From: Naegleria gruberi
Lineage: Eukaryota
Length of the DNA: 13,492 bases
Assembly: GCA_000004985.1 (NCBI GenBank)
Contig: GG738994.1
Reading direction: 5' to 3' (one strand)
Shown here: in pieces, positions 2-13,492 of the stretch
How positions within the stretch are numbered: position 1 is the stretch's first letter
How the letters are laid out: every line of letters starts with the position of its first letter
Position numbers and translations under genes: made by a program
Notes under the pieces: generated by a model
The model's database searches: none
What the model saw: the letters and a program-made list of their open reading frames with translations, nothing else
Told to the model about the DNA's origin: nothing

Positions 2-1762
2 AATGCTCTATATATTGCTAAAACTACATTTATTCGTATGTTTGATCTTACCACTAGAAAAATGTCTTTAATTGCTGGTAGTGAAACAGAGGCTGCTCCG
101 AGTGGAGGCTATAATACTTATGACAGGAACCCAGAGGATGCCAGATTTACTTTTATTAAGGAAGTGAGAGTATTAGATGGAGTAGTGTATTTTCTTAATA
201 ATTGTTATGTGACTGACAGTTGTATCAATTATTTTTCTTTGGGTGATCGTATTTTTAACCTTGACAGGGGTTATACTGAAACTGGTGTGTCTTTTGTTGT
301 CTTCAAGGATAGTGAGGGTGAAGTCAATTCACTCGTAGCTACAGCAGAAAAGTTGGTCTATCATAAGAGGCCACATTATAATAGATTTATTAGGAGAACG
401 GAAGCTGATACCATTATCAAGTTGATTGATAACAAAGCTGGAAAACAGGCCTTGGTAACAACCACCAAAGTTATCGATTTTTCAAATGAAGCTACTCTCT
501 TCACTTTTGATTCACCATTTGCAGCTAGGGATGTGGTAATGATATCAGCAACAGCTATTGTATATTCTAGTAGTAGTGGCTATTACTTGAACAAAGTTGA
601 TGCTAAAGGAGAAACAGTACTTGCAGGTATTGGAAACACTATCCAAATTGGAGATTATGGACCTGGTGAAGAAGCATACGGAACCACTACTAAAGGTGTA
701 GCAGTTGTTGACTCAACTTTATACATTTCAGAATATGATAATATGAGAATAAGAAAAGTCAACATTAATACTGGAATTATTTATCCCCATATTACTTTAA
801 CATGCTACCCTTCAAAACTCAAAATGTCCAAAGACAATAACAAGTTATTTTTCCTATGTAGTGACGGTCCAAGTGTATCTATAATGCAGTACATTTTCAG
901 TACAAATTTAATAACAACTGTAAAGTCAGGTTTTCCAGCTGCCACATTTAAGGGTTTTACCTTTGACGCAATTACTGGAGCACTTTTTTATTCAACTTAT
1001 TCTAATGGTGTTACTCAAATTTGTAGACTTAATCCTAATTCCTGTAAGACAATCACTACACAATTTACTGGTGGTGTTTATGGAGACATTGATGCCTACA
1101 ATGGATACATCTATGTTATCTCAAGTGTTGGTTCCATCTATAAGATAAGATATGATACAATGGACGTACAAGTAATTGGCGCCTTCTATCTTGCTGGCTA
1201 TCCAACAATACACATTACAAAACAAGGTACCATATTAATTGGCTCTCATACAGCTGTTTATAGATTTGAAGGTGCACAGGATGGTTCTTTTTATCCAGTT
1301 TCAACTAATTTTGTAATTGCTGGTGATGCTCTTCCACCAGAGGGTACAACCAGTTTATGGTATAGAGAAATCAGCCAAGTTGCAATGTCTGATGATTATC
1401 AAAGATTATTTATTGCTGATCCACATCACCTTGGTGGTGTTACACAATTGAATGCCAAGACCTCATCCTGTTGGTCCTACAAGTATACTAATACTGCAGG
1501 AAATCTGGTATTACCAACTGGAACTTATTGTTCAATTTCTTGTAATTCTGTTGCTTCTAATAATCCAACCGTTTGTAGTGGTTCTGGTTCTTGTACTGCT
1601 TACTTGGTCAATCCTTCTTACTTGGGAAAACCATTTTGTGATTGTGAATATGGCTATTCTGGTACAACTTGTTCTGATTATACCTGTNTTGGTTACCCAA
1701 AAAATGAAACAACTGGTTGTAAATCTCATGGTACTTGTGTTGGATATAATACTTGTAACTGA
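2..1762 (+). CDS. 5'-truncated ORF of a large extracellular protein. It has NHL-type beta-propeller repeats (about 2-1450) and then six-Cys EGF-like repeats from 1469. It stops at TGA 1760-1762, which sits at a consensus Cys position.
   Basis: The 574-aa ORF in frame 2 stays open upstream of ATG 38 to the window edge (..NALYIAKTTFIR-MFDL..), so the Met at 38 is probably internal. NHL-like motifs include GVAVVDSTLYISEYDNMRIRKVNINTG, FTFDAITGALFYSTYSNG and YNGYIYVISSVGSIYKIRYD. From 1469 the repeats are EGF-like, for example CSGSGSCTAYLVNPSYLGKPFCDCEYGYSGTTC and CKSHGTCVGYNTCN. Position 1688 is an ambiguous base. Confidence 0.85.
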   Translation, partial: NALYIAKTTFIRMFDLTTRKMSLIAGSETEAAPSGGYNTYDRNPEDARFTFIKEVRVLDGVVYFLNNCYVTDSCINYFSLGDRIFNLDRGYTETGVSFVVFKDSEGEVNSLVATAEKLVYHKRPHYNRFIRRTEADTIIKLIDNKAGKQALVTTTKVIDFSNEATLFTFDSPFAARDVVMISATAIVYSSSSGYYLNKVDAKGETVLAGIGNTIQIGDYGPGEEAYGTTTKGVAVVDSTLYISEYDNMRIRKVNINTGIIYPHITLTCYPSKLKMSKDNNKLFFLCSDGPSVSIMQYIFSTNLITTVKSGFPAATFKGFTFDAITGALFYSTYSNGVTQICRLNPNSCKTITTQFTGGVYGDIDAYNGYIYVISSVGSIYKIRYDTMDVQVIGAFYLAGYPTIHITKQGTILIGSHTAVYRFEGAQDGSFYPVSTNFVIAGDALPPEGTTSLWYREISQVAMSDDYQRLFIADPHHLGGVTQLNAKTSSCWSYKYTNTAGNLVLPTGTYCSISCNSVASNNPTVCSGSGSCTAYLVNPSYLGKPFCDCEYGYSGTTCSDYTCXGYPKNETTGCKSHGTCVGYNTCN

Positions 1763-3037: not shown

Positions 3038-3634
3038 NNNNNNNNNNNNNNNNNNNNNNNNNNNNNNNNNNNNNNNNNNNNNNNNNNNNNNNNNNNNNNN
3101 NNNNNNNNNNNNNNNNNNNNNNNNNNNNNNNNNNNNNNNNNNNNNNNNNNNNNNNNNNNNNNNNNNNNNNNNNNNNNNNNNNNNNNNNNNNNNNNNNNNN
3201 NNNNNNNNNNNNNNNNNNNNNNNNNNNNNNNNNNNNNNNNNNNNNNNNNNNNNNNNNNNNNNNNNNNNNNNNNNNNNNNNNNNNNNNNNNNNNNNNNNNN
3301 NNNNNNNNNNNNNNNNNNNNNNNNNNNNNNNNNNNNNNNNNNNNNNNNNNNNNNNNNNNNNNNNNNNNNNNNNNNNNNNNNNNNNNNNNNNNNNNNNNNN
3401 NNNNNNNNNNNNNNNNNNNNNNNNNNNNNNNNNNNNNNNNNNNNNNNNNNNNNNNNNNNNNNNNNNNNNNNNNNNNNNNNNNNNNNNNNNNNNNNNNNNN
3501 NNNNNNNNNNNNNNNNNNNNNNNNNNNNNNNNNNNNNNNNNNNNNNNNNNNNNNNNNNNNNNNNNNNNNNNNNNNNNNNNNNNNNNNNNNNNNNNNNNNN
3601 NNNNNNNNNNNNNNNNNNNNNNNNNNNNNNNNNN
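3038..3634. other. Assembly gap: a run of 597 N characters.
   Basis: The gap is seen directly as a run of n. The X-only ORFs on the track across it are artefacts. Confidence 0.99.
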
Positions 3635-3653: not shown

Positions 3654-4330
3654 TGTACAACTGGTTACATAACTACTGATCTCTCTCAACCATGTTCAAT
3701 GTGTAACTCTACCCTTAAACTAACTCTTGATCAAAATGGAAAATGTGTTTGTGATGCTAGCAATGGATACGTTGTTGGTGCAACAGGAGCTTGTGTCAAG
3801 TACACAGCCAAGTGTCCTATTGCATGTGGTTCCAATGGGGCCTGTCAATTGTTAACTCCAACAACTTCAGGATGTGTGTGTAAGAATGGTTTTATCACAA
3901 CCAATGAAACTAAACCATGTTCATCTTGTCCTCAAGGAAAGATTAATTCTTCCTCTAAATGTGTATGTGATACAGTCAATGGATACACTATAAATGGTAC
4001 TGGTTGTGGCTGTGATGCTTCTCGTGGATATATTGCTGGTTCTGATGGACTTTGTTCTTGCAATGCAAATCTCAATTTGGTTACCTATGGTTCATCATGT
4101 GTCTGTAAGCTTAACTATCATTTAGTTAATGGATCTTGTGTTTTAATTCCTCCAGCTTGTTATGGTAGTTCGAGTTGTGGAATCCATGGACAATGTATGT
4201 ATGAGGATGTAAATAACACTGCCCGTACAATCTGTCAATGTGACACTGGATACACCACTGCCTCTTACAGTACCTCTCTTTGTGTAGACTGTGCTAGAGA
4301 TTATCGTATGGATAAAAATTATATCTGTAA
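3654..4330 (+). other. Cys-rich repeat region with CxCDxxNGYxxxxxGxC modules and CxxC/CxxxxC pairs.
   Basis: Examples are NGKCVCDASNGYVVGATGACV, SSKCVCDTVNGYTINGTGCGCDASRGYIAGSDGLCSC, and a six-Cys unit CYGSSSCGIHGQCMYEDVNNTARTICQCDTGYTT. Confidence 0.6.
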
Positions 4331-7300
4331 AAAGAGCTGTGTGCTCGATGGTTACAATGATGATTGTACTACCTATGTTCCTGCTGATATTTGTGCTTAT
4401 ACAAATCCCCAAACAATTCCATTCTGTGGATTTAATATTTACAGGGTAAGACAAAGAAGATTTTTAAGGCAGAATTATACAGGTGAACTTGTTTATATTG
4501 GAAGGGACATGGTTAAAGATTTGGACAAATCAATGATTTATTATGATACATTGGCTAAAAACAAAACCAGAGATGCCATGCTTGAACTTGCCAAAGCAGG
4601 AGTAGTTTGTGACAGCAAATGTAAAGAACATTTGACTGTCCTGTATTGTAAATCATTGGTACCTATGTGTGATGGAACCGATGCTCCAATAGAAAGAACA
4701 TTTTGTAAGCAAACTTGTATTGACATTTGGTCCCAAAAGTTAAATTACACTGTTAATTTGGAATCAAAGTGTGAAGGATTGTCAGTAGAAGATTCTTGTG
4801 ACTCGCGTCCATATATCAACCCTTCAACTCAATGCTTTGGTGTTCACTATTTAAATTCATCTGTTTGTTCAGGAAGGGGTCAATGCATTCAAAAAGATAC
4901 TTGTAATTGTAATAATGGATATGGAGGAAAAAATTGTGAACAATTCGTTTGTTTTATTTATAAGGATACCGATATACCAGTTTGTAATTATCGTGGAAAG
5001 TGCGTTGGACCACACACTTGTGCCTGTAATGGTCCTTGGACTGGAAGTGATTGTCAGATACCTCTCTGTAATCGTAAAACTGAAAAACAAGGCGGTTGCA
5101 ATTTCAATGGAGTTTGTAAGCTTATTCTTGGAAGTCCATCTTGTATCTGTGCTTCAAGTGGTAATTGGGCTAAATCAGATGTTTCTTGCTCTGTTTGTGC
5201 AACTGGATGGGGAGGACCTGGTTGTAATGTTCCAGTTTGTAATGGGGTTATATCAACAAGTCCAGATGTTTGTGGTGGAAGAGGTGGATGTGATTCGATT
5301 CGTCTTGCACAACCATCTTGTACTTGTTTGAAAGGATATGAAGGAAACAATTGCCAAAACTTTAAGTGTAATGAAATTGATAGAAATAGCACTTCTGTGT
5401 GTTCTGGACGTGGTACTTGTGCTGGCTTAAACACTTGTGTTTGTAAGGGTAATTTCGACCCAGCTAAATTCTGTTCTGAATGTACACCGGCCTATAATGG
5501 AACTGATTGTACTGAAAGAGTTTGTACTGAAGCAGGTACTTGTAATGGTAATGGTATTTGTAATTCAAATGGAAAATGTGACTGTACTGGAAATTGGGTT
5601 GGTCAATTTTGTGACAAATGTTTACCTGGATTTGTTGGTTCTTCATGTAATATTAAATGTGATTGTAATGGAAGAGGAAGTTGTAACAATGATGGATCAT
5701 GTATCTGTTCTGAAAATGCAGAAGGTACCAAATGTGAAACTTGTAAAACAGGATGGTATGGTGATAAGTGTGATTTCTCAATTGATGCTTCTTCATTTGG
5801 ATTTTCATCAAATGGTGACTCCATCTCAGGAACAGTTTATTCTTCTCTCAAGAGAAAGTTTGATTGTTCTGAACTAATTTTGGAATCTTCAAAGCTAGGT
5901 AAAGGAGCAGTGTGCGTTGTTAATAGTGATTCAAACTTGATGACCATTTCTCTTGGAAGAAATGCTTCAATTGTCCTTGATGAGGTTCTTACATTCAAGT
6001 CATACTTTAATTCTTCATCAACTGTTTCTGTAACATTTGCTGAAAGAGATTATATACCAACAAATCCTTCCATCTCTGTCACTACTGATAAGACAACAAT
6101 TTCAAGAGCTTGTGGTTTCGTCTATTTGGATGCCTCTGGCTCCACATCAACAGATCGTAGAACATTGCAATTCTCTTGGAGTGTTCAGTCTGCACCTTCT
6201 CCACTTAATGGTCTTACTTTAACTAGTTTAATTACTAATCAACAAGGGTCTTCAGGAGTCACTATTAATTCAAACAGTCTTGGTGTTGGCAGTTATTCTG
6301 TTACAGCAACCATCACAAGTCCATTTTCTGGTTTAAGTGCTTCTTCAACTGTCTCATTCCTGGTTACTGATTTGACAGCTCCTATCGTTTCAATTAAGGA
6401 GGGCTCTGAAAGTACAATGACTATTGGAAAGATTTATTCAATCAATCCAAAGATTACATTCCCAAGCTGTTATGGTGGAAATGGACCATTTACGTTTACA
6501 TATGCTTTGGATGTTAGAAATGTCATTCCAGTAGTTGTTAAACAAAAGTATAATATTCTCGTCTTCAGTGAAGATTATACCAAGATTACTGAACCAGGCG
6601 ATTATTACTTCACTTTCACTGTTTCTCAAGCTGGAGCATCAAGTGTGACAGTTCCATTTAAGGTAACTGCTAAGGCACTTCCTTTGAGCGTTGGATTCAA
6701 TATTGGTGATAGAACTCAATCTGTGGAAACTGAAGTTTCGTTCACCGTTTCCAAGTCTGACCCAAGTAATCCTTCAGATAATTCTGGAACAGTTGTCTTG
6801 TCATGTTTGGATCTTGACAATAGTGCAGATTGTAGCGGATTTACCTCTGGTGAAGCAAATATTGACCAAACTACTTTGAAATTCTCTAAATTTATGGTTC
6901 CCGGCCCATATCTCTTCACTGCTACATTTACAAAGGGTTCAAGAAGTAGCTCTGCAAGTATTAAAGTGACTGTTATTGATCAACCAAAGGACACTGTCAT
7001 TAGAGTGTCTATTGCTGCTCCTCCAAATACTGACTTGACAGCTGTTGATCCATCTTCTGATTTCATATTACAAGCTTATTCATCAGATGTTCTGTCAACT
7101 GACAGAGTTTACACATGGTCATCACCTGACCTTGATATGTCTGGAATTGTTACCAGTAACAAGTACATTCTTCTTCCAAAGATCTTACTTGTTCCAGGTA
7201 CTTTCCATATTATTAACCTTAATGTAGTAGATGATCAAAGATCTGGTGAAGCAACTATTTCATTTACAATCAACTCTCCACCAACAGTTGGTATTTTGGA

Positions 7301-8816
7301 AGTTTCTCCTGCTACAGGTGTTGCTTTACAAGACGATTTCCAAATCAAGTGTGGTAATGGTTGGTATGATACTCAACTTCCTTTGATGTATGAATTCAAA
7401 TACAGAGTGGTAGGAGATTCAACTTGGAAGGTTTTGTCAGAAATGTCTGAAAAGAAATCAATCACTTCTCAATTACCAGCTGGTAAAATTGAAATCAAGA
7501 CAATTGTTTATGATTCTCTTTCTGCCTCCTCTGAAACTACAACTCTTGTTACTGTTACTGTCCCTTCCCTTAGTGAAGCCATTGCTGCTTTGAATGTTTC
7601 TCAAATGGGTACAGTTTCAGTTGCTTCAGTTTCATCTGCATTGAGTTTAGTAAGTGAAATTACTGTTTCCACTCCAGAACAAAAACAAGCCCTAGCACAA
7701 GCTAATAAGGCTCTTGTAGACAAATTCTTTGAACAACAAGACGTACAATCTCAAATCGTTTCTGAAACTTCTCAATCTGCCAGTTCAAAAGTTTCTGTTA
7801 TTTCTTCCATTAGTAATTGTTTAGGAAACTTCCCAGATGAAACCATTTCCAAGGTTATTGATCAGTTCTCTTCAACTATCTCATCAGCTTCTTCTTCATC
7901 TAATGTTAATATGAAGACAGATGATATTCAAAACTCCAAGGAAGCTGCTTTGAACCTCAAGAGCTATGTTTCAAATGCCATTTCAAAGAGAGCAGTAACT
8001 ACTCTTACTGTCAAGGATTTGGCAAAGATTGATGGCATCTATAGCAATATTGTTAATGTCGAACTTAAGAGTGCAGTTGCTGATATGCCAGCTGTCAGAA
8101 GTACTGGTGTTGATTCATCTATTTATGCCAGACTTGTCAGTATTTCAACCCTTAGTGGTTTGTCTGGTTTTGTTGATGATACAAGCTTTTCTTCATCCTA
8201 TTTTGAAATGAAGAATGTTTTCAGCTCTATGAAGAGATTTGAAAATGTTGACAGTGTTAAAATTGTCACAAAGGTTTACAAGTTGACCAACTCAACATTG
8301 AAAGCAATCAGTAAGGTGATTGACTTTGTCATTACTGAAAATGATAACAACCTTTCCTTTGCATCTGAAAATATCACTCTTGCCACAATCAAGATTGAAA
8401 AAGTCAAAACAGCAAGAACCTCATTCACACAAACACAAATTTCATGTTATTCAGTTCAAAACAATGTCTATTCCATCTCGCCAAATTGTAAAGTTGTTAG
8501 CACCAATAGTGCAACTGCAGATATTTCTGTTACTAACACTGGTTCCTATGTTGTTGCTGAAGTCACTGTGGACAGCCCAATTACTCCAACAAATTCCACG
8601 CCGAAACCAACAGAATCGAATAATAATAACATTGTCACTCCAATTCCTGGTGTTAATCAATCAGACTCCAACTTGTATTACATCATTTTTGTTCTGGCCA
8701 TAATACCTATTGTGTTATTGATAATTGTTGGTATATTGGTTTGTATTTGTTGTATGATCAAGAAGAAGAAGAAAAGACCAAGCCCAGGTCCAAGAGATAT
8801 CGAACTAACTGCTTAA
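3654..8816 (+). CDS. A 5.1 kb intronless exon encoding the C-terminal about 1720 aa of a giant type-I membrane protein. The order is Cys-rich repeats, a Frizzled-like CRD, nine EGF-like repeats, a REJ-like module, a helical Ser-rich region, a GPS-like remnant, a mucin-like stalk, one transmembrane helix and a short Lys-rich tail. The ATG at 3699 is not the true start.
   Basis: The track gives 1705 aa with no stop over 5118 nt of AT-rich DNA. The same frame is open from 3654, right after a TAA at 3651-3653 that abuts the gap. There it reads CTTGYITTDLSQPC, which mirrors CSTGFVVDNLGKC at 2820-2860. There is no signal peptide at MCNSTLKL. The C-terminus is YYIIFVLAIIPIVLLIIVGILVCICCMI followed by KKKKKRPSPGPRDIELTA and TAA at 8814-8816. 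Confidence 0.92.
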   Translation, partial: CTTGYITTDLSQPCSMCNSTLKLTLDQNGKCVCDASNGYVVGATGACVKYTAKCPIACGSNGACQLLTPTTSGCVCKNGFITTNETKPCSSCPQGKINSSSKCVCDTVNGYTINGTGCGCDASRGYIAGSDGLCSCNANLNLVTYGSSCVCKLNYHLVNGSCVLIPPACYGSSSCGIHGQCMYEDVNNTARTICQCDTGYTTASYSTSLCVDCARDYRMDKNYICKKSCVLDGYNDDCTTYVPADICAYTNPQTIPFCGFNIYRVRQRRFLRQNYTGELVYIGRDMVKDLDKSMIYYDTLAKNKTRDAMLELAKAGVVCDSKCKEHLTVLYCKSLVPMCDGTDAPIERTFCKQTCIDIWSQKLNYTVNLESKCEGLSVEDSCDSRPYINPSTQCFGVHYLNSSVCSGRGQCIQKDTCNCNNGYGGKNCEQFVCFIYKDTDIPVCNYRGKCVGPHTCACNGPWTGSDCQIPLCNRKTEKQGGCNFNGVCKLILGSPSCICASSGNWAKSDVSCSVCATGWGGPGCNVPVCNGVISTSPDVCGGRGGCDSIRLAQPSCTCLKGYEGNNCQNFKCNEIDRNSTSVCSGRGTCAGLNTCVCKGNFDPAKFCSECTPAYNGTDCTERVCTEAGTCNGNGICNSNGKCDCTGNWVGQFCDKCLPGFVGSSCNIKCDCNGRGSCNNDGSCICSENAEGTKCETCKTGWYGDKCDFSIDASSFGFSSNGDSISGTVYSSLKRKFDCSELILESSKLGKGAVCVVNSDSNLMTISLGRNASIVLDEVLTFKSYFNSSSTVSVTFAERDYIPTNPSISVTTDKTTISRACGFVYLDASGSTSTDRRTLQFSWSVQSAPSPLNGLTLTSLITNQQGSSGVTINSNSLGVGSYSVTATITSPFSGLSASSTVSFLVTDLTAPIVSIKEGSESTMTIGKIYSINPKITFPSCYGGNGPFTFTYALDVRNVIPVVVKQKYNILVFSEDYTKITEPGDYYFTFTVSQAGASSVTVPFKVTAKALPLSVGFNIGDRTQSVETEVSFTVSKSDPSNPSDNSGTVVLSCLDLDNSADCSGFTSGEANIDQTTLKFSKFMVPGPYLFTATFTKGSRSSSASIKVTVIDQPKDTVIRVSIAAPPNTDLTAVDPSSDFILQAYSSDVLSTDRVYTWSSPDLDMSGIVTSNKYILLPKILLVPGTFHIINLNVVDDQRSGEATISFTINSPPTVGILEVSPATGVALQDDFQIKCGNGWYDTQLPLMYEFKYRVVGDSTWKVLSEMSEKKSITSQLPAGKIEIKTIVYDSLSASSETTTLVTVTVPSLSEAIAALNVSQMGTVSVASVSSALSLVSEITVSTPEQKQALAQANKALVDKFFEQQDVQSQIVSETSQSASSKVSVISSISNCLGNFPDETISKVIDQFSSTISSASSSSNVNMKTDDIQNSKEAALNLKSYVSNAISKRAVTTLTVKDLAKIDGIYSNIVNVELKSAVADMPAVRSTGVDSSIYARLVSISTLSGLSGFVDDTSFSSSYFEMKNVFSSMKRFENVDSVKIVTKVYKLTNSTLKAISKVIDFVITENDNNLSFASENITLATIKIEKVKTARTSFTQTQISCYSVQNNVYSISPNCKVVSTNSATADISVTNTGSYVVAEVTVDSPITPTNSTPKPTESNNNNIVTPIPGVNQSDSNLYYIIFVLAIIPIVLLIIVGILVCICCMIKKKKKRPSPGPRDIELTA
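4392..4799 (+). other. Frizzled-type cysteine-rich domain (FZ-CRD)-like module.
   Basis: There are ten Cys. The core spacing CKEHLTVLYC-KSLVPMC-DGTDAPIERTFC-KQTC gives C-x8-C-x6-C-x11-C-x3-C. This matches the Fz CRD core (..FLCSMYAPVC..PPCRSLC..) as I recall it. A conserved Pro precedes the third Cys, and a Trp (IDIW) follows the CxxxC pair. Confidence 0.4.
4833..5771 (+). other. Array of about nine six-Cys EGF-like repeats of the tenascin / Dictyostelium type.
   Basis: Examples are VCSGRGQCIQKDTCNCNNGYGGKNCEQFVC, VCNYRGKCVGPHTCACNGPWTGSDCQIPLC, CSVCATGWGGPGCNVPVC, CDKCLPGFVGSSCNIKCDCNGRGSCNNDGSCIC and CETCKTGWYGDKCDF. Confidence 0.85.
6100..7570 (+). other. REJ-like module (receptor for egg jelly / polycystin-1 type). 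The core signature lies at 7270-7400.
   Basis: A Cys-poor, Ser/Thr-rich beta-strand region shows the pattern FTINSPPTVGILEVSPATGVALQDDFQIKCGNGWYDTQLPLMYEFKYRV. This fits the REJ signature nAPPsgG..v.P..GvAL...F.i.C.gW.D...PL.Y as I remember it from PKD1 and suREJ. Upstream there are SW/TW-containing repeats (SWSVQSAPSPLNG, TWSSPDLDMSG). Confidence 0.5.
8676..8759 (+). other. A single predicted transmembrane helix. It follows a Ser/Thr/Pro/Asn stalk (8580-8675) and precedes a (AAG)n-encoded KKKKK stop-transfer sequence.
   Basis: The sequence YYIIFVLAIIPIVLLIIVGILVCICCMI is 28 consecutive hydrophobic residues, with a basic cluster immediately after it. Confidence 0.8.
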
Positions 8817-9026: not shown

Positions 9027-9914
9027 TCATGTAACTCTGTAAACCTTGATTCTATTATTTCCAGTATCAACAATAAACAAACGAGATGACCCGTAGCAGA
9101 ATGCAATTCCAGAAGGATATTTCAATGAATTTTCATGGTTTCCAAAGCTACCAATGCAAGTAGAACCAGAAAAGGGATTGTTAGGATGAAATTTTGAAAT
9201 TCTATGTGAATCCCACTCTGTAAGAAATATATCACCAGTTGACTTGTCCACAAAAACAGAGTTTGGTGCTTGAAATTCTCCCTTATCATTCCCAATACTT
9301 CCAAAGCTACTAATAAATTCTCCATTAGATTTCAGTATCTGTATGCGATTATTTCCACTGTCAGAAATAATGATATTCCCAGCACTGTCAATGTCAATAT
9401 CTCTTGGGAATGAGAATTGACCATATTCCTTTCCCATAGATCCAATCGATTTCAGTAATTCACCACCTGGAGAAAAAACTACAATTCTATGTTTAAACCA
9501 ATCACAAACATAGATATTTCCCTCATAGTCAACCACAACACCTGTTGGAGAATCCATTACATTCTTTGTTGTAACTCCTCCCCATCTCCATATCTCATTT
9601 CCATTAAAATCATATTTACAAATCAATGAATCTCGAGTGAAACTAATAATTAAAGTGTGATCCCAATGAACTGTCACTGCATTTGGTTTGAATGGTGTCG
9701 TAAACATGTACTTGAATGTCAGAGTTGACTCATCAAAAACCTGAATACGTCTATTATCTGTATCCACAACAAATATTAATTGATTTTTGAAATCAATAGC
9801 CACATCAGATGGATTCTTGAATTGACCATTCTGAGAACCATAACTTCCAATGCATCCAATCAATTCAAACTCGGACTGGCTCGTTTTCATTCCCGAACAA
9901 CCATTCACAGTCAT
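9027..9914 (-). CDS. Six-blade NHL-repeat beta-propeller protein. The ATG is at 9912-9914, and the track's TTG start at 9917 is an alternative-start artefact.
   Basis: Classic NHL repeats are present: PSDVAIDFKNQLIFVVDTDNRRIQVFDES, PTGVVVDYEGNIYVCDWFKHRIVVF, PRDIDIDSAGNIIISDSGNNRIQIL, PNSVFVDKSTGDIFLTEWDSHRISKF and PSGIAFCYGSSRLFIVDTGNNRIKVYRVT. The stop is TGA at 9027-9029. Confidence 0.85.
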   Translation of the reverse strand: MTVNGCSGMKTSQSEFELIGCIGSYGSQNGQFKNPSDVAIDFKNQLIFVVDTDNRRIQVFDESTLTFKYMFTTPFKPNAVTVHWDHTLIISFTRDSLICKYDFNGNEIWRWGGVTTKNVMDSPTGVVVDYEGNIYVCDWFKHRIVVFSPGGELLKSIGSMGKEYGQFSFPRDIDIDSAGNIIISDSGNNRIQILKSNGEFISSFGSIGNDKGEFQAPNSVFVDKSTGDIFLTEWDSHRISKFHPNNPFSGSTCIGSFGNHENSLKYPSGIAFCYGSSRLFIVDTGNNRIKVYRVT

Positions 9915-9917
9915 CAA

Positions 9918-10411: not shown

Positions 10412-11378
10412 TCAATGTTTTCTTCCCTTCTTAGTACTACCTCCCACTTTCTTACTTGTAGTAGAGCCACTAGATGTTTGTGCCTTACTCTTTCCCTCAT
10501 ATACAGCATTCTTGAACTTGTCAAAATACTTAAAATTGGTAACATCTGAGAGAATGGCCTTTGAACGTTGGAGAACATTCTGTCCTTTTGTTGGAGCATA
10601 GTTGCCACCACTACTTGGAGTTGATGCAGAGGAGAGATTATCATGTGAAGATAATAATCTTGTTGGGGATGTTGAATTGTTAACACTTTGTTGCTCAGTA
10701 GAGAATTCTGTACAATTGGTATTAGGAGATCTATTCGAAACACAGGATTCTGTGGAAATGTGTGAATCAGTGCTCTCTGGTGGCTTGTAATAAAGTAGTG
10801 CAAAATAGATTTTCTCCTTCATTATTTTGGAGTCGAATATTGGTTTGACTCGTTGAAGCTTGGAACTAAAATCATCCTCTGCGGAGAAATACTCAAACTC
10901 TTCATTAAGATTATTTTCTTCACTTGAAATAAGGCCATTATCAGCAATACTACCCTTAGACTCGTCACTAGGAGTTTCTTCAGTTGAAGCAACACTACCA
11001 GATTTTCCATTATCCGAAAGCGAATGATCATCAACAGTGCAACATTTTTCTTTTTCATAACTCTTTCTTACTGAAGGAAATTTAGCACATTCTTTTGGTT
11101 CATATTTAGAAAAAGAAAGAGAAGCAATTTTAATTCCTTTCACCCAATAGAACACCAAAACAGATAACAAATATTCGTAGATTAAGGTGCAAATGTAATT
11201 CTCTTCTCTCTTTCTTGTTACTAGCTGTACATGAAGAATAGCAGAACCATCCAGACACCACACTAAAGTGCAATCCCTTATCTTCAGCCATTTCCTTTAA
11301 AATCGGTTTTTTTGGTTCATCATTATCGGTTTCATCGATAATAAGTTCTAGGTTGCATGTAAGAAAGCCATGTTTCAT
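10412..11378 (-). CDS. Hypothetical acidic Ser-rich protein with a frame discontinuity. The N-terminal part (from ATG 11376-11378) is in one frame, and the rest (to TGA 10412-10414) is in another. The join is either a +/-1 frameshift in 11130-11263 or an intron at 11092-11221.
   Basis: ORF A (11130-11378) reads MKHGFLTCNLELIIDETDNDEPKKPILKEMAEDKGLHFSVVSGWFCYSSCTA. ORF B (10412-11263) reads ..KYEPKECAKFPSVRKSYEKEKCCTVDDHSLSDNGKSGSVASTEETPSDES..GSTKKGRKH. The sequence aaaaaaaATG precedes the start. A minus-strand GTAACA donor at 11221 and a ccaaaAG acceptor at 11092 would give an in-phase 130-nt intron. Confidence 0.6.
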
Positions 11379-11534: not shown

Positions 11535-11539
11535 AAAAA
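11535..11539 (-). terminator. Pol III T5 terminator immediately 3' of the 5S gene.
   Basis: On the minus strand, ..GTAGTC is followed directly by TTTTT. Confidence 0.7.
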
Positions 11540-11657
11540 GACTACAGCACCACAGGTTCCCAAGTTGTCTCCAATCTCAGTACTGATGTGGCTCGACGAT
11601 GCTTAACTTCTCAAATCGGACGGGATGAGGTGCATGAATCGTGATATGGCCGTAGCC
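11540..11657 (-). rRNA. 5S ribosomal RNA gene, about 118 nt.
   Basis: The minus strand reads GGCTACGGCCATATCACGATTCATGCACCTCATCCCGTCCGATTTGAGAAGTTAAGCATCGTCGAGCCACATCAGTACTGAGATTGGAGACAACTTGGGAACCTGTGGTGCTGTAGTC. This matches the universal 5S blocks GCCATAYCAC, CCCGTCCGAT.TG.GAAGTTAAGC, AGTACT..G.TGGGAGAC and CTGGGAA.ACC.GGTGCTGTAG. The 5' GGCUACGGC pairs with the 3' GCUGUAGUC to form helix I. Confidence 0.9.
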
Positions 11658-12126
11658 ATCAATTACCTTAAAAGTCTAATGATACAGCCAATCTGTCTTT
11701 AACCCGAATGGGCTATGACTAACAATGTCGGACAAATTCATAATGGATTGAAAATGATACCTTACCACAAACAAAGTATTGAATACGGCAATTGTTTCGA
11801 AACTTTGAATTTTGCTGTATTACTCCTCATTCTTCCTCTCAGTAATAAAGGTAGTAAATTGATGCAGCTTTCTTTCATTAAAAGATAAGCCAGGTTTCCT
11901 CAGTCCTCTGCAAGATGATGAGAATTTTACAATTTCCTCAGTAAAACCTACAACCATTATTCTGTCAAACACCCAACGGGTCGCTTTGACACTTGAATAT
12001 CCCCTCACCTACCCTGGATCTCATCCATGTTGGCCTGTTGAGTGCAGATAATCAATCTCGTATACCACTATTTCTTAACTTGAACTCTAACTAAAATTCC
12101 TACAACAGCGTATCAAAAGAATTTAA

Positions 12127-12292
12127 ATACTTACCGAAATTGGGTGGTGTGTAGTTTACAATAAACCTCTAGTGAGTGGGGCACAAGACTTTCCAATTCA
12201 TAAATTGTCTGAGAAATTATTTCAATTGTTAATTTTGGACGGGAAGCCTGCCAGGAATATGGCGACTATCCCGCTACAGTCTTGGACTGTAT
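12127..12292 (+). ncRNA. Candidate U1 snRNA-like gene. The alternative reading is a minus-strand 5' splice site (cgGTAAGTAT).
   Basis: The sequence begins ATACTTACC, which matches the U1 5' end AUACUUACC that pairs with GTAAGT donors. An Sm-like site AATTTTGG lies at 12231-12238. A perfect six-bp hairpin ACAGTCttgGACTGT lies at 12276-12290, where a 3'-terminal stem is expected. The total is about 165 nt, which is U1-sized. I could not identify loop I or loop II motifs. Confidence 0.25.
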
Positions 12293-12666
12293 GAACAGTG
12301 AAGGCAACTAATCTATTGATTGTTGGTTCAGTAAGTTATTGTTTAGAAAAACTTGCAACGTGACCATATATTTATCACATTTGAATTTTATCTACTTAGA
12401 AAGAGAAACTTGTGGTTGATCAATAAACCTTCAAATTTCGAATTTGAGTCTTCAAATATATTGTTTCGTATTGGCAAGTATAAATGTAATTCAAGACAGT
12501 GCAATGAATTTTGTTATAGTGCTTGATCATTAGAATTGTGAATTGGTATAAGGAAAGGTTTGATCGTTTCTCTAGTTAATTTTATTTTCTATTAGTTGAT
12601 AAAAAGAATAAGGTACCAATCTGCATGTTCACAAATCCCCCATTCACAAACCATGGCTGGTAAGGA

Positions 12667-12831
12667 ATGCAGCAATCATCTATGAACGAGGAAACCTACA
12701 ACGAAGCATGTTTCCAGTTCGATATCATGCTCAAGATATGTGACTACAGAGTCTTCATCTTGGTTAACCTCAAAGGTCAGATTGACTCAAAAAAGTCGAG
12801 TTTATGTATTCCTACAGAAAAGATCCTGTAG
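12667..12831 (+). CDS. Small 54-aa ORF, just below the track threshold. Its validity is uncertain.
   Basis: The ORF reads MQQSSMNEETYNEACFQFDIMLKICDYRVFILVNLKGQIDSKKSSLCIPTEKIL and ends at TAG 12829-12831. A TATAAAT motif at 12479-12485 and an ATGGCTGgtaagg (start plus donor-like) at 12653-12665 lie upstream in another frame. Confidence 0.2.
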   Translation: MQQSSMNEETYNEACFQFDIMLKICDYRVFILVNLKGQIDSKKSSLCIPTEKIL

Positions 12832-13492
12832 AAGTACAGTCAATGGTTTTATCAAGTTTCATTTGTGAGGTTTGTGATATTGGTTTTGAATGTGTGAAAA
12901 GTGGAATTAGAAAATTGTGGTACGTTTAATGTGTGAAAAATATATAAATAGGATTCAAGAAAATAATTGCATGAGTTATTTTCTTTAAATCATTGAGGTG
13001 GAAAGAGCATTTTCAATAGTTCCATGATGGCTCTTCTTCAAGATCGTAATACCATGGTTTTTAAGAATTTCCTTCAACTCGGTATTTATATCCACTTGTA
13101 TTTGAGCAAATAATCCAGAACTGTTGTAAATTTTTGTCTTGACAAAGTAAGTTGGAGGCAAACTTCCCTTTTTTCGATTCCTATTTTCTCAAAAGTTTTC
13201 TAATTGGTGTTTATGGAGAAAGAACATGAAGTTGCATCATCATAACCACTGTTTCAAACAAAATCAATCAATTTACTGTAAACTTCAGAGTGCCACTTCC
13301 AGGTGTCTCAAGAAAACATTGAACCTTGTCAAAGCAAACAAAATCTTTCGTTTCCACACACAAAACATGATTTAGTCCATTTTTGCCCATATCGGAATTC
13401 ACAACGTGATTAAAAAAACTTTAAATTCGCAAACACAACTATTTGCCTTCAGATAAAAGAAAAAGAAACCAACAACAATTATTAGAACATTT

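Follow-up and report, generated by a model that had tools for sequence, protein, structure and literature searches.

The minus strand of the window, the 13,492-nt stretch of DNA analysed here, carries a genuine and complete 5S rRNA gene at positions 11539–11657, and this gene is an ordinary, already catalogued member of the known dispersed 5S family of Naegleria gruberi. Very probably it is one of the ~279 chromosomal 5S genes of this species, solitary, dispersed among protein-coding genes and self-contained as an RNA polymerase III unit.

The identity of the gene was established with an Rfam cmscan of the window, in which the 119-nt segment matched RF00001 at full length (model positions 1–120 of 120), not truncated, with a score of 100.0 bits relative to a gathering threshold of 38 (E = 2.4e-21). 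The initial annotation had described a canonical 5S sequence and proposed RF00001 as the check, and this result supports the description, the copy being far above threshold. Helix I, which had also been noted, was present on the minus strand as 9 bp formed by GGCUACGGC with GCUGUAGUC, including two G-U pairs. Likewise, a T5 run, a putative RNA polymerase III terminator read from the sequence, was found at the 3' end as claimed (11535..11539, minus strand), with its first T being the last nucleotide of the 5S gene. The extent of 11535–11657 given earlier was correct at 11657; position 11535 is the end of the terminator, and the gene boundary is 11539. No strand had been given, and the earlier description fits the minus strand only. 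Neither a permissive search (E ≤ 1) nor blastn-short found a second 5S copy or fragment in the window, and the Rfam scan detected no 18S, 5.8S or 28S sequence anywhere within it. Thus, the 5S gene lies outside any rDNA unit, in agreement with what had been proposed. The same copy has been published as R9397, scaffold_158 11537–11655 (Table S1, PMC3369914), within 2 nt of the gene mapped here, and the agreement of these coordinates identifies the window as scaffold_158.

A total of 279 putative 5S genes were reported in the JGI assembly of N. gruberi, away from the rDNA units (PMC3369914, PLoS One 2012;7:e36878). The 5.8S, 18S and 28S genes are present as one copy each on a 14-kb extrachromosomal circle, of which there are thousands, and the circle encodes these three rRNAs only (PMC5805870). 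Spacing within the 5S family was analysed by transcribing all 279 rows of Table S1 (PMC3369914). The 279 hits were distributed over 117 scaffolds, 57 of which had a single copy, and the median distance between neighbours on the same scaffold was 33.9 kb, with one distance below 1 kb and nine below 2 kb. The N. gruberi 5S family is scattered, with some loose clusters. With copies on 117 scaffolds and neighbours a median of 34 kb apart, finding a 5S gene among protein-coding genes is the usual situation in this genome. The 'tandem' scoring in Table 1 of PMC3369914 is at odds with the coordinates in its own Table S1. The initial annotation had put forward a lineage with dispersed 5S genes and proposed a genome-wide count of copies; the 279 putative copies of the published table, separate from rDNA in N. 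gruberi (PMC3369914), bear out the former and provide the latter.

Related copies were found in environmental sequence data. A metagenome scan using a pattern derived from the 5S gene recovered a contig (L001) with a near-identical 5S beside a hydrolase gene, the best named relatives of which were from Willaertia magna and Naegleria lovaniensis, and this locus recurred in a second, independent metagenome (L006). A spurious ORF of 45 aa crosses the 5S gene in antisense. Used as a further query, it identified seven more such ORFs; five of the seven were traced to contigs, all five of which carried a 5S scoring 92–105 bits. A 5S gene of 119–121 nt was present at five separate metagenome loci, represented by six contigs, of which two cover a single locus. 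Every related copy was solitary, with unrelated flanks and a T4–T6 run at its end (at the place equivalent to the T5 run in 7 of 7 copies). Three identical copies occurred within one sample in three different gene contexts, and one related copy was located among tRNA genes. Scans of sequence collections did not find the 5S core in bacterial or archaeal genomes or in viral contigs. On the Naegleria-like metagenome contig L010, positions 1–1354 form a dense cluster of RNA polymerase III genes, with two tRNA-Glu genes, one tRNA-Met gene, a partial tRNA, a 5S and the 70-nt element described below. The 5S of this contig scored 92.3 bits, with one pair broken and 2 nt inserted in loop C, and the contig also carries a 39-nt direct repeat.

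The canonical 5S structure was counted on five distinct sequences, consisting of this copy and copies from Naegleria-like metagenome contigs. Standard pairing was observed in 98.9% of cells, and the copy in the window formed 34 of the 35 canonical pairs, with U21–C57 as the sole broken pair. Four compensatory double changes were present (C3–G116 to U–A, A19–U59 to G–C, C68–G107 to U–A and A69–U106 to G–C). When partners were slid by 1–3 columns as a control, 29–50% of cells were paired and there were zero compensatory pairs. The five distinct sequences are genes under selection for the 5S fold.

Putative promoter elements were located within and upstream of the gene. Box A of the internal control region (AGTTAAGCATCGTCG, +50 to +64, 11594..11608, minus strand) matched the pattern of PMC3369914 exactly, and a box C-like segment (GAGATTGGAGACAACTTG, +80 to +97, 11561..11578, minus strand) had 2 mismatches to the box C pattern; in this sequence-only test both were at their classical positions. 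Among related copies, only position 83 of the box C-like segment varied (A, G or C), and since the box C pattern does not specify this position, the 2 mismatches are common to all copies. Upstream, a weak TATA-like motif, ATTAGA, was found at −23 to −18 (11675..11680, minus strand), and similar A/T-rich ATTA(N)AGA motifs were present at −23 to −17 in L001 and L010. An intermediate element of the internal promoter was also considered and rejected, as the published pattern was too degenerate and there was no match at +67–72. N. gruberi 5S genes were reported to have an internal control region together with an upstream TATA box, and TFIIIA was not detected in this organism (PMC3369914), so the role of the internal boxes in N. 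gruberi is uncertain. We infer a promoter function for box A, the box C-like segment and the TATA-like motif from sequence. The copy is most likely a self-contained RNA polymerase III unit, in which a type-1 internal promoter (box A at +50–64, box C-like segment at +80–97) would direct initiation at the first G, possibly assisted by the TATA-like element near −20. The T5 run would then end the 119-nt transcript, which would fold into a three-way junction and join the large ribosomal subunit. For this particular copy, promoter use, transcription and incorporation into ribosomes are presumed.

Compared to the closest sequence, that of L001, this copy differed at 4 of 119 positions (G21U, A22C, A24U and G83A), and we asked how these changes bear on its being intact. 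We lean towards a tolerated, expressed variant. The main rival, which is possible and which we nonetheless consider rather unlikely, is a young, slightly decaying 5S copy, that is, an incipient pseudogene that is maybe transcribed, has a poorer fold and contributes little to ribosomes. Decay is argued for by G21U and A22C, neither of which occurs in the nearest relatives available for comparison, all metagenome-derived. G21U, one of two broken cells overall, disrupts G21–C57, the closing pair of helix II, which is intact in every other distinct sequence, and loop B reads UCAUG here versus the widespread GAAAG. The predicted folding was also the weakest of the set and ~7 kcal/mol weaker than in the closest relatives. 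For this copy, the centroid was canonical but the minimum-energy fold was not, at an ensemble energy of −35.1 kcal/mol (z = −0.79), whereas its relatives folded canonically, with ensemble energies of −38 to −43 kcal/mol (z = −2.0 to −2.7). Reversion of G21 alone was predicted to regain the canonical minimum-energy fold. The Rfam score of 100.0 was lower than those of intact relatives (103.6–106.3). Table S1 gives the copy a score of 89/121 and a length of 119 nt, shared by only four hits in total versus 235 of 117 nt, a minority hit class that suggests that it is not of the majority N. gruberi sequence type. Furthermore, relics are known in large dispersed 5S families, such as the eight in Yarrowia (PMC2566860). 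Against decay, just 1 of 35 pairs is broken and the centroid remains the canonical Y, the sequence is free of indels and truncation, boxes A and C as well as the terminator are intact, and the score of 100 bits is well over the family threshold. Positions 24 and 83 also vary among other, otherwise intact-looking copies, and in-silico folding is a weak guide for a protein-bound RNA. The pseudogene alternative raised by the initial annotation therefore keeps one broken pair and a changed loop B in its favour and has the full-length, indel-free sequence against it.

Beyond the 3' end of the 5S gene, the next ORF on the same strand (11130–11378, 82 aa) begins 160 nt away with an ATG at 11376..11378 (minus strand). 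The protein-coding start that had been placed at this distance does open an ATG-initiated ORF, which makes it a putative gene start. ORF 10412–11263 overlaps this ORF in another frame, and the overlap suggests an intron. No match to a Pfam domain was found in ORF 11130–11378, and no tRNA gene was found within the window. Elsewhere in the window, a 1705-aa ORF (3699–8816) encodes a REJ domain and EGF repeats, a 597-N assembly gap (3038–3634) divides what appears to be a single gene region with EGF repeats, and position 1688 is a lone N.

In the other direction, a U3 snoRNA gene is located 958 nt upstream of the 5S gene on the shared strand (12615–12843, minus; Rfam RF00012, full model, 76.7 bits relative to a threshold of 34). 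Its 5' end is closely similar to the box A'/A region of yeast U3, and the position of box D is occupied by CAGA, not CUGA. An internal T6 run (CGACUUUUUUGAGUC) in the gene speaks against RNA polymerase III as the transcribing enzyme and predicts RNA polymerase II instead. The surroundings of the 5S copies at related loci yielded no U3. A 15-nt direct repeat, TTTTCACACATT(C/A)AA, occurs at 12886–12900 and 12925–12939 on the minus strand, −43 and −82 relative to the start of U3, and farther upstream is a TATTTATATATTT stretch. The repeat is a candidate U3 promoter element; its two matches were not much above chance, being reached by 16 of 200 shuffles, and neither the rest of the window nor the related loci that were retrieved contained it. 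No promoter motif common to the 5S and U3 genes was found.

Between the 5S and U3 genes lies a 70-nt element (12227–12294, plus strand). Further copies were identified in L010 (1080–1148, minus strand), 92% identical to that in the window, and in L013 (1245–1314 and 2619–2688, plus strand), 77–80% identical. The element was predicted to form two hairpins, in which three pairs had changed on both sides and were still paired, and it has a conserved loop, AGGAAUAU, with GUA directly following the core in 4 of 4 copies. It matched no Rfam family and is not a tRNA. A model built from the element scored 83–93 bits on its four copies and detected nothing convincing in ~60 kb from N. lovaniensis, Willaertia and other relatives. 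All copies were on contigs with 5S or tRNA genes, contigs that had been chosen for 5S. Candidate identities are a small RNA gene and a short dispersed repeat. A small protein exon was rejected, as substitutions were mostly non-synonymous and the stems co-varied; a spliced-leader-like reading, suggested by GUA after the core, was without support, and a search for literature on Naegleria spliced leaders found none. In L013, a sequence at ~1565–1600 (minus strand), between the 70-nt element and a polyubiquitin gene, matched the 3' half (T arm and acceptor) of the L010 tRNA-Met and had no recognisable 5' half; neither ARAGORN nor Rfam gave a call for this tRNA-like sequence.

A further reading, which we regard as improbable, is that the copy is a deliberately maintained minority 5S variant with condition-specific expression (e.g., during the amoeba-to-flagellate switch). 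It would then belong to a small non-coding RNA cluster together with U3 and the structured 70-nt RNA, which recurs close to 5S and tRNA genes in Naegleria-like genomes. The altered end of helix II and loop B would, in that case, parallel the oocyte and somatic 5S types on which the reading is modelled.

The positions of 5S genes were compared across species at the hydrolase locus. In L001 and L006, which represent one Naegleria-like species, the 5S is 165 nt upstream of the hydrolase gene in divergent orientation. Neither 5S nor U3 was present at the hydrolase orthologues of N. lovaniensis, Willaertia magna and two other contigs, within ≤10 kb on each side or up to the contig end. The comparison leaves out a closer relative, L008, the flank of which was too short. 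The hydrolase loci without 5S in N. lovaniensis and another relative were otherwise microsyntenic with L001/L006. Thus, 5S positions are not conserved and turn over between species.

RNA polymerase III genes act as chromatin boundaries in yeasts. By analogy, the 5S gene could additionally serve as a boundary or insulator between its neighbours. It is located between co-oriented genes, adjoining other non-coding RNA genes. A position-specific role of this kind is argued against by the lack of conservation described above, given that the orthologues of the hydrolase gene that adjoins the L001/L006 5S have no 5S beside them, and we consider it very improbable.

A retro-copy, or a 5S-derived SINE inserted among genes, would likewise be solitary amid protein-coding genes. 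This arrangement is the rule for the whole family of ~279, and none of the hallmarks of such an insertion was seen at the locus itself, where the 5S gene is neither truncated nor fused to an unrelated body and has no A-rich tail or target-site duplications. The copy is full length from position 1, its 3' end is a T-run and not an A-rich tail, no direct repeats bracket it, and its upstream A/T-rich element resembles that of other copies. The retro-copy alternative in the initial annotation finds no support at this locus, which has no A-tail, flanking duplications or truncation, and we judge its chances to be very slim.

The D. discoideum 5S gene sits on the extrachromosomal rDNA palindrome. An amoebozoan, dictyostelid-like genome with a chromosomal 5S that departs from this arrangement, as the initial annotation had supposed, might be suggested by the low G+C content (35.7%) and by N-rich, EGF-rich ORFs with a superficial likeness to genes of social amoebae, and is next to impossible given that ORF 9027–9917 (NHL-repeat) has a counterpart of 100% identity at NCBI, 'predicted protein [Naegleria gruberi]', that the 5S coordinates agree with N. 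gruberi scaffold_158 (PMC3369914), and that a taxonomy look-up places Naegleria in Discoba/Heterolobosea. After N. gruberi, protein matches were at 33–43% identity; the NHL-repeat ORF has no close homologue beyond N. gruberi, its next match being 33% identical. Since Naegleria is outside Amoebozoa, the Dictyostelium comparison on which that argument was based is inapplicable.

As a discovery, the gene has little value, because a 2012 publication already reported the gene, how many copies exist and their separation from rDNA, with this exact copy in a supplementary table (PMC3369914). The re-examination corrects the organism to which this 5S gene had been assigned, and the published coordinates reveal that the N. 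gruberi 5S family is scattered and not tandem. Environmental Naegleria-like genomes have equally solitary, non-syntenic 5S genes that are uniform within a genome. Two small leads emerge: helix II is weakened in this copy, and a structured 70-nt repeat of no assigned class lies close by.

Relative to the published N. gruberi 5S family (PMC3369914), this copy shares its scaffold and coordinates with an entry in Table S1, is unlinked to rDNA, and has the internal control boxes and the upstream A/T-rich element. It differs in belonging to the minority class of 119-nt hits and in carrying G21U and A22C relative to its nearest relatives. As in N. gruberi, the 5S genes of Yarrowia (PMC2566860) are outside the rDNA unit, in the form of about a hundred or more scattered RNA polymerase III copies, some of which are relics. 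In contrast, half of the 5S genes in Yarrowia are joined to the 3' side of a tRNA gene, whereas the N. gruberi window has no tRNA. As the two lineages are unrelated, the scattered arrangement arose independently in Yarrowia and Naegleria. Dictyostelium discoideum and Naegleria both have large rRNA genes on extrachromosomal elements; however, the organisms are unrelated, the Naegleria element carries 5.8S, 18S and 28S only (PMC5805870), and the Naegleria 5S genes are chromosomal and dispersed. Finally, the order of box A (+50–64), box C-like segment (+80–97) and T-run is that of the Xenopus-type (type 1) 5S promoter. Unlike that promoter, box C has 2 mismatches in all Naegleria-like copies and TFIIIA was not detected in N. 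gruberi (PMC3369914). The upstream TATA-like element may be more important.
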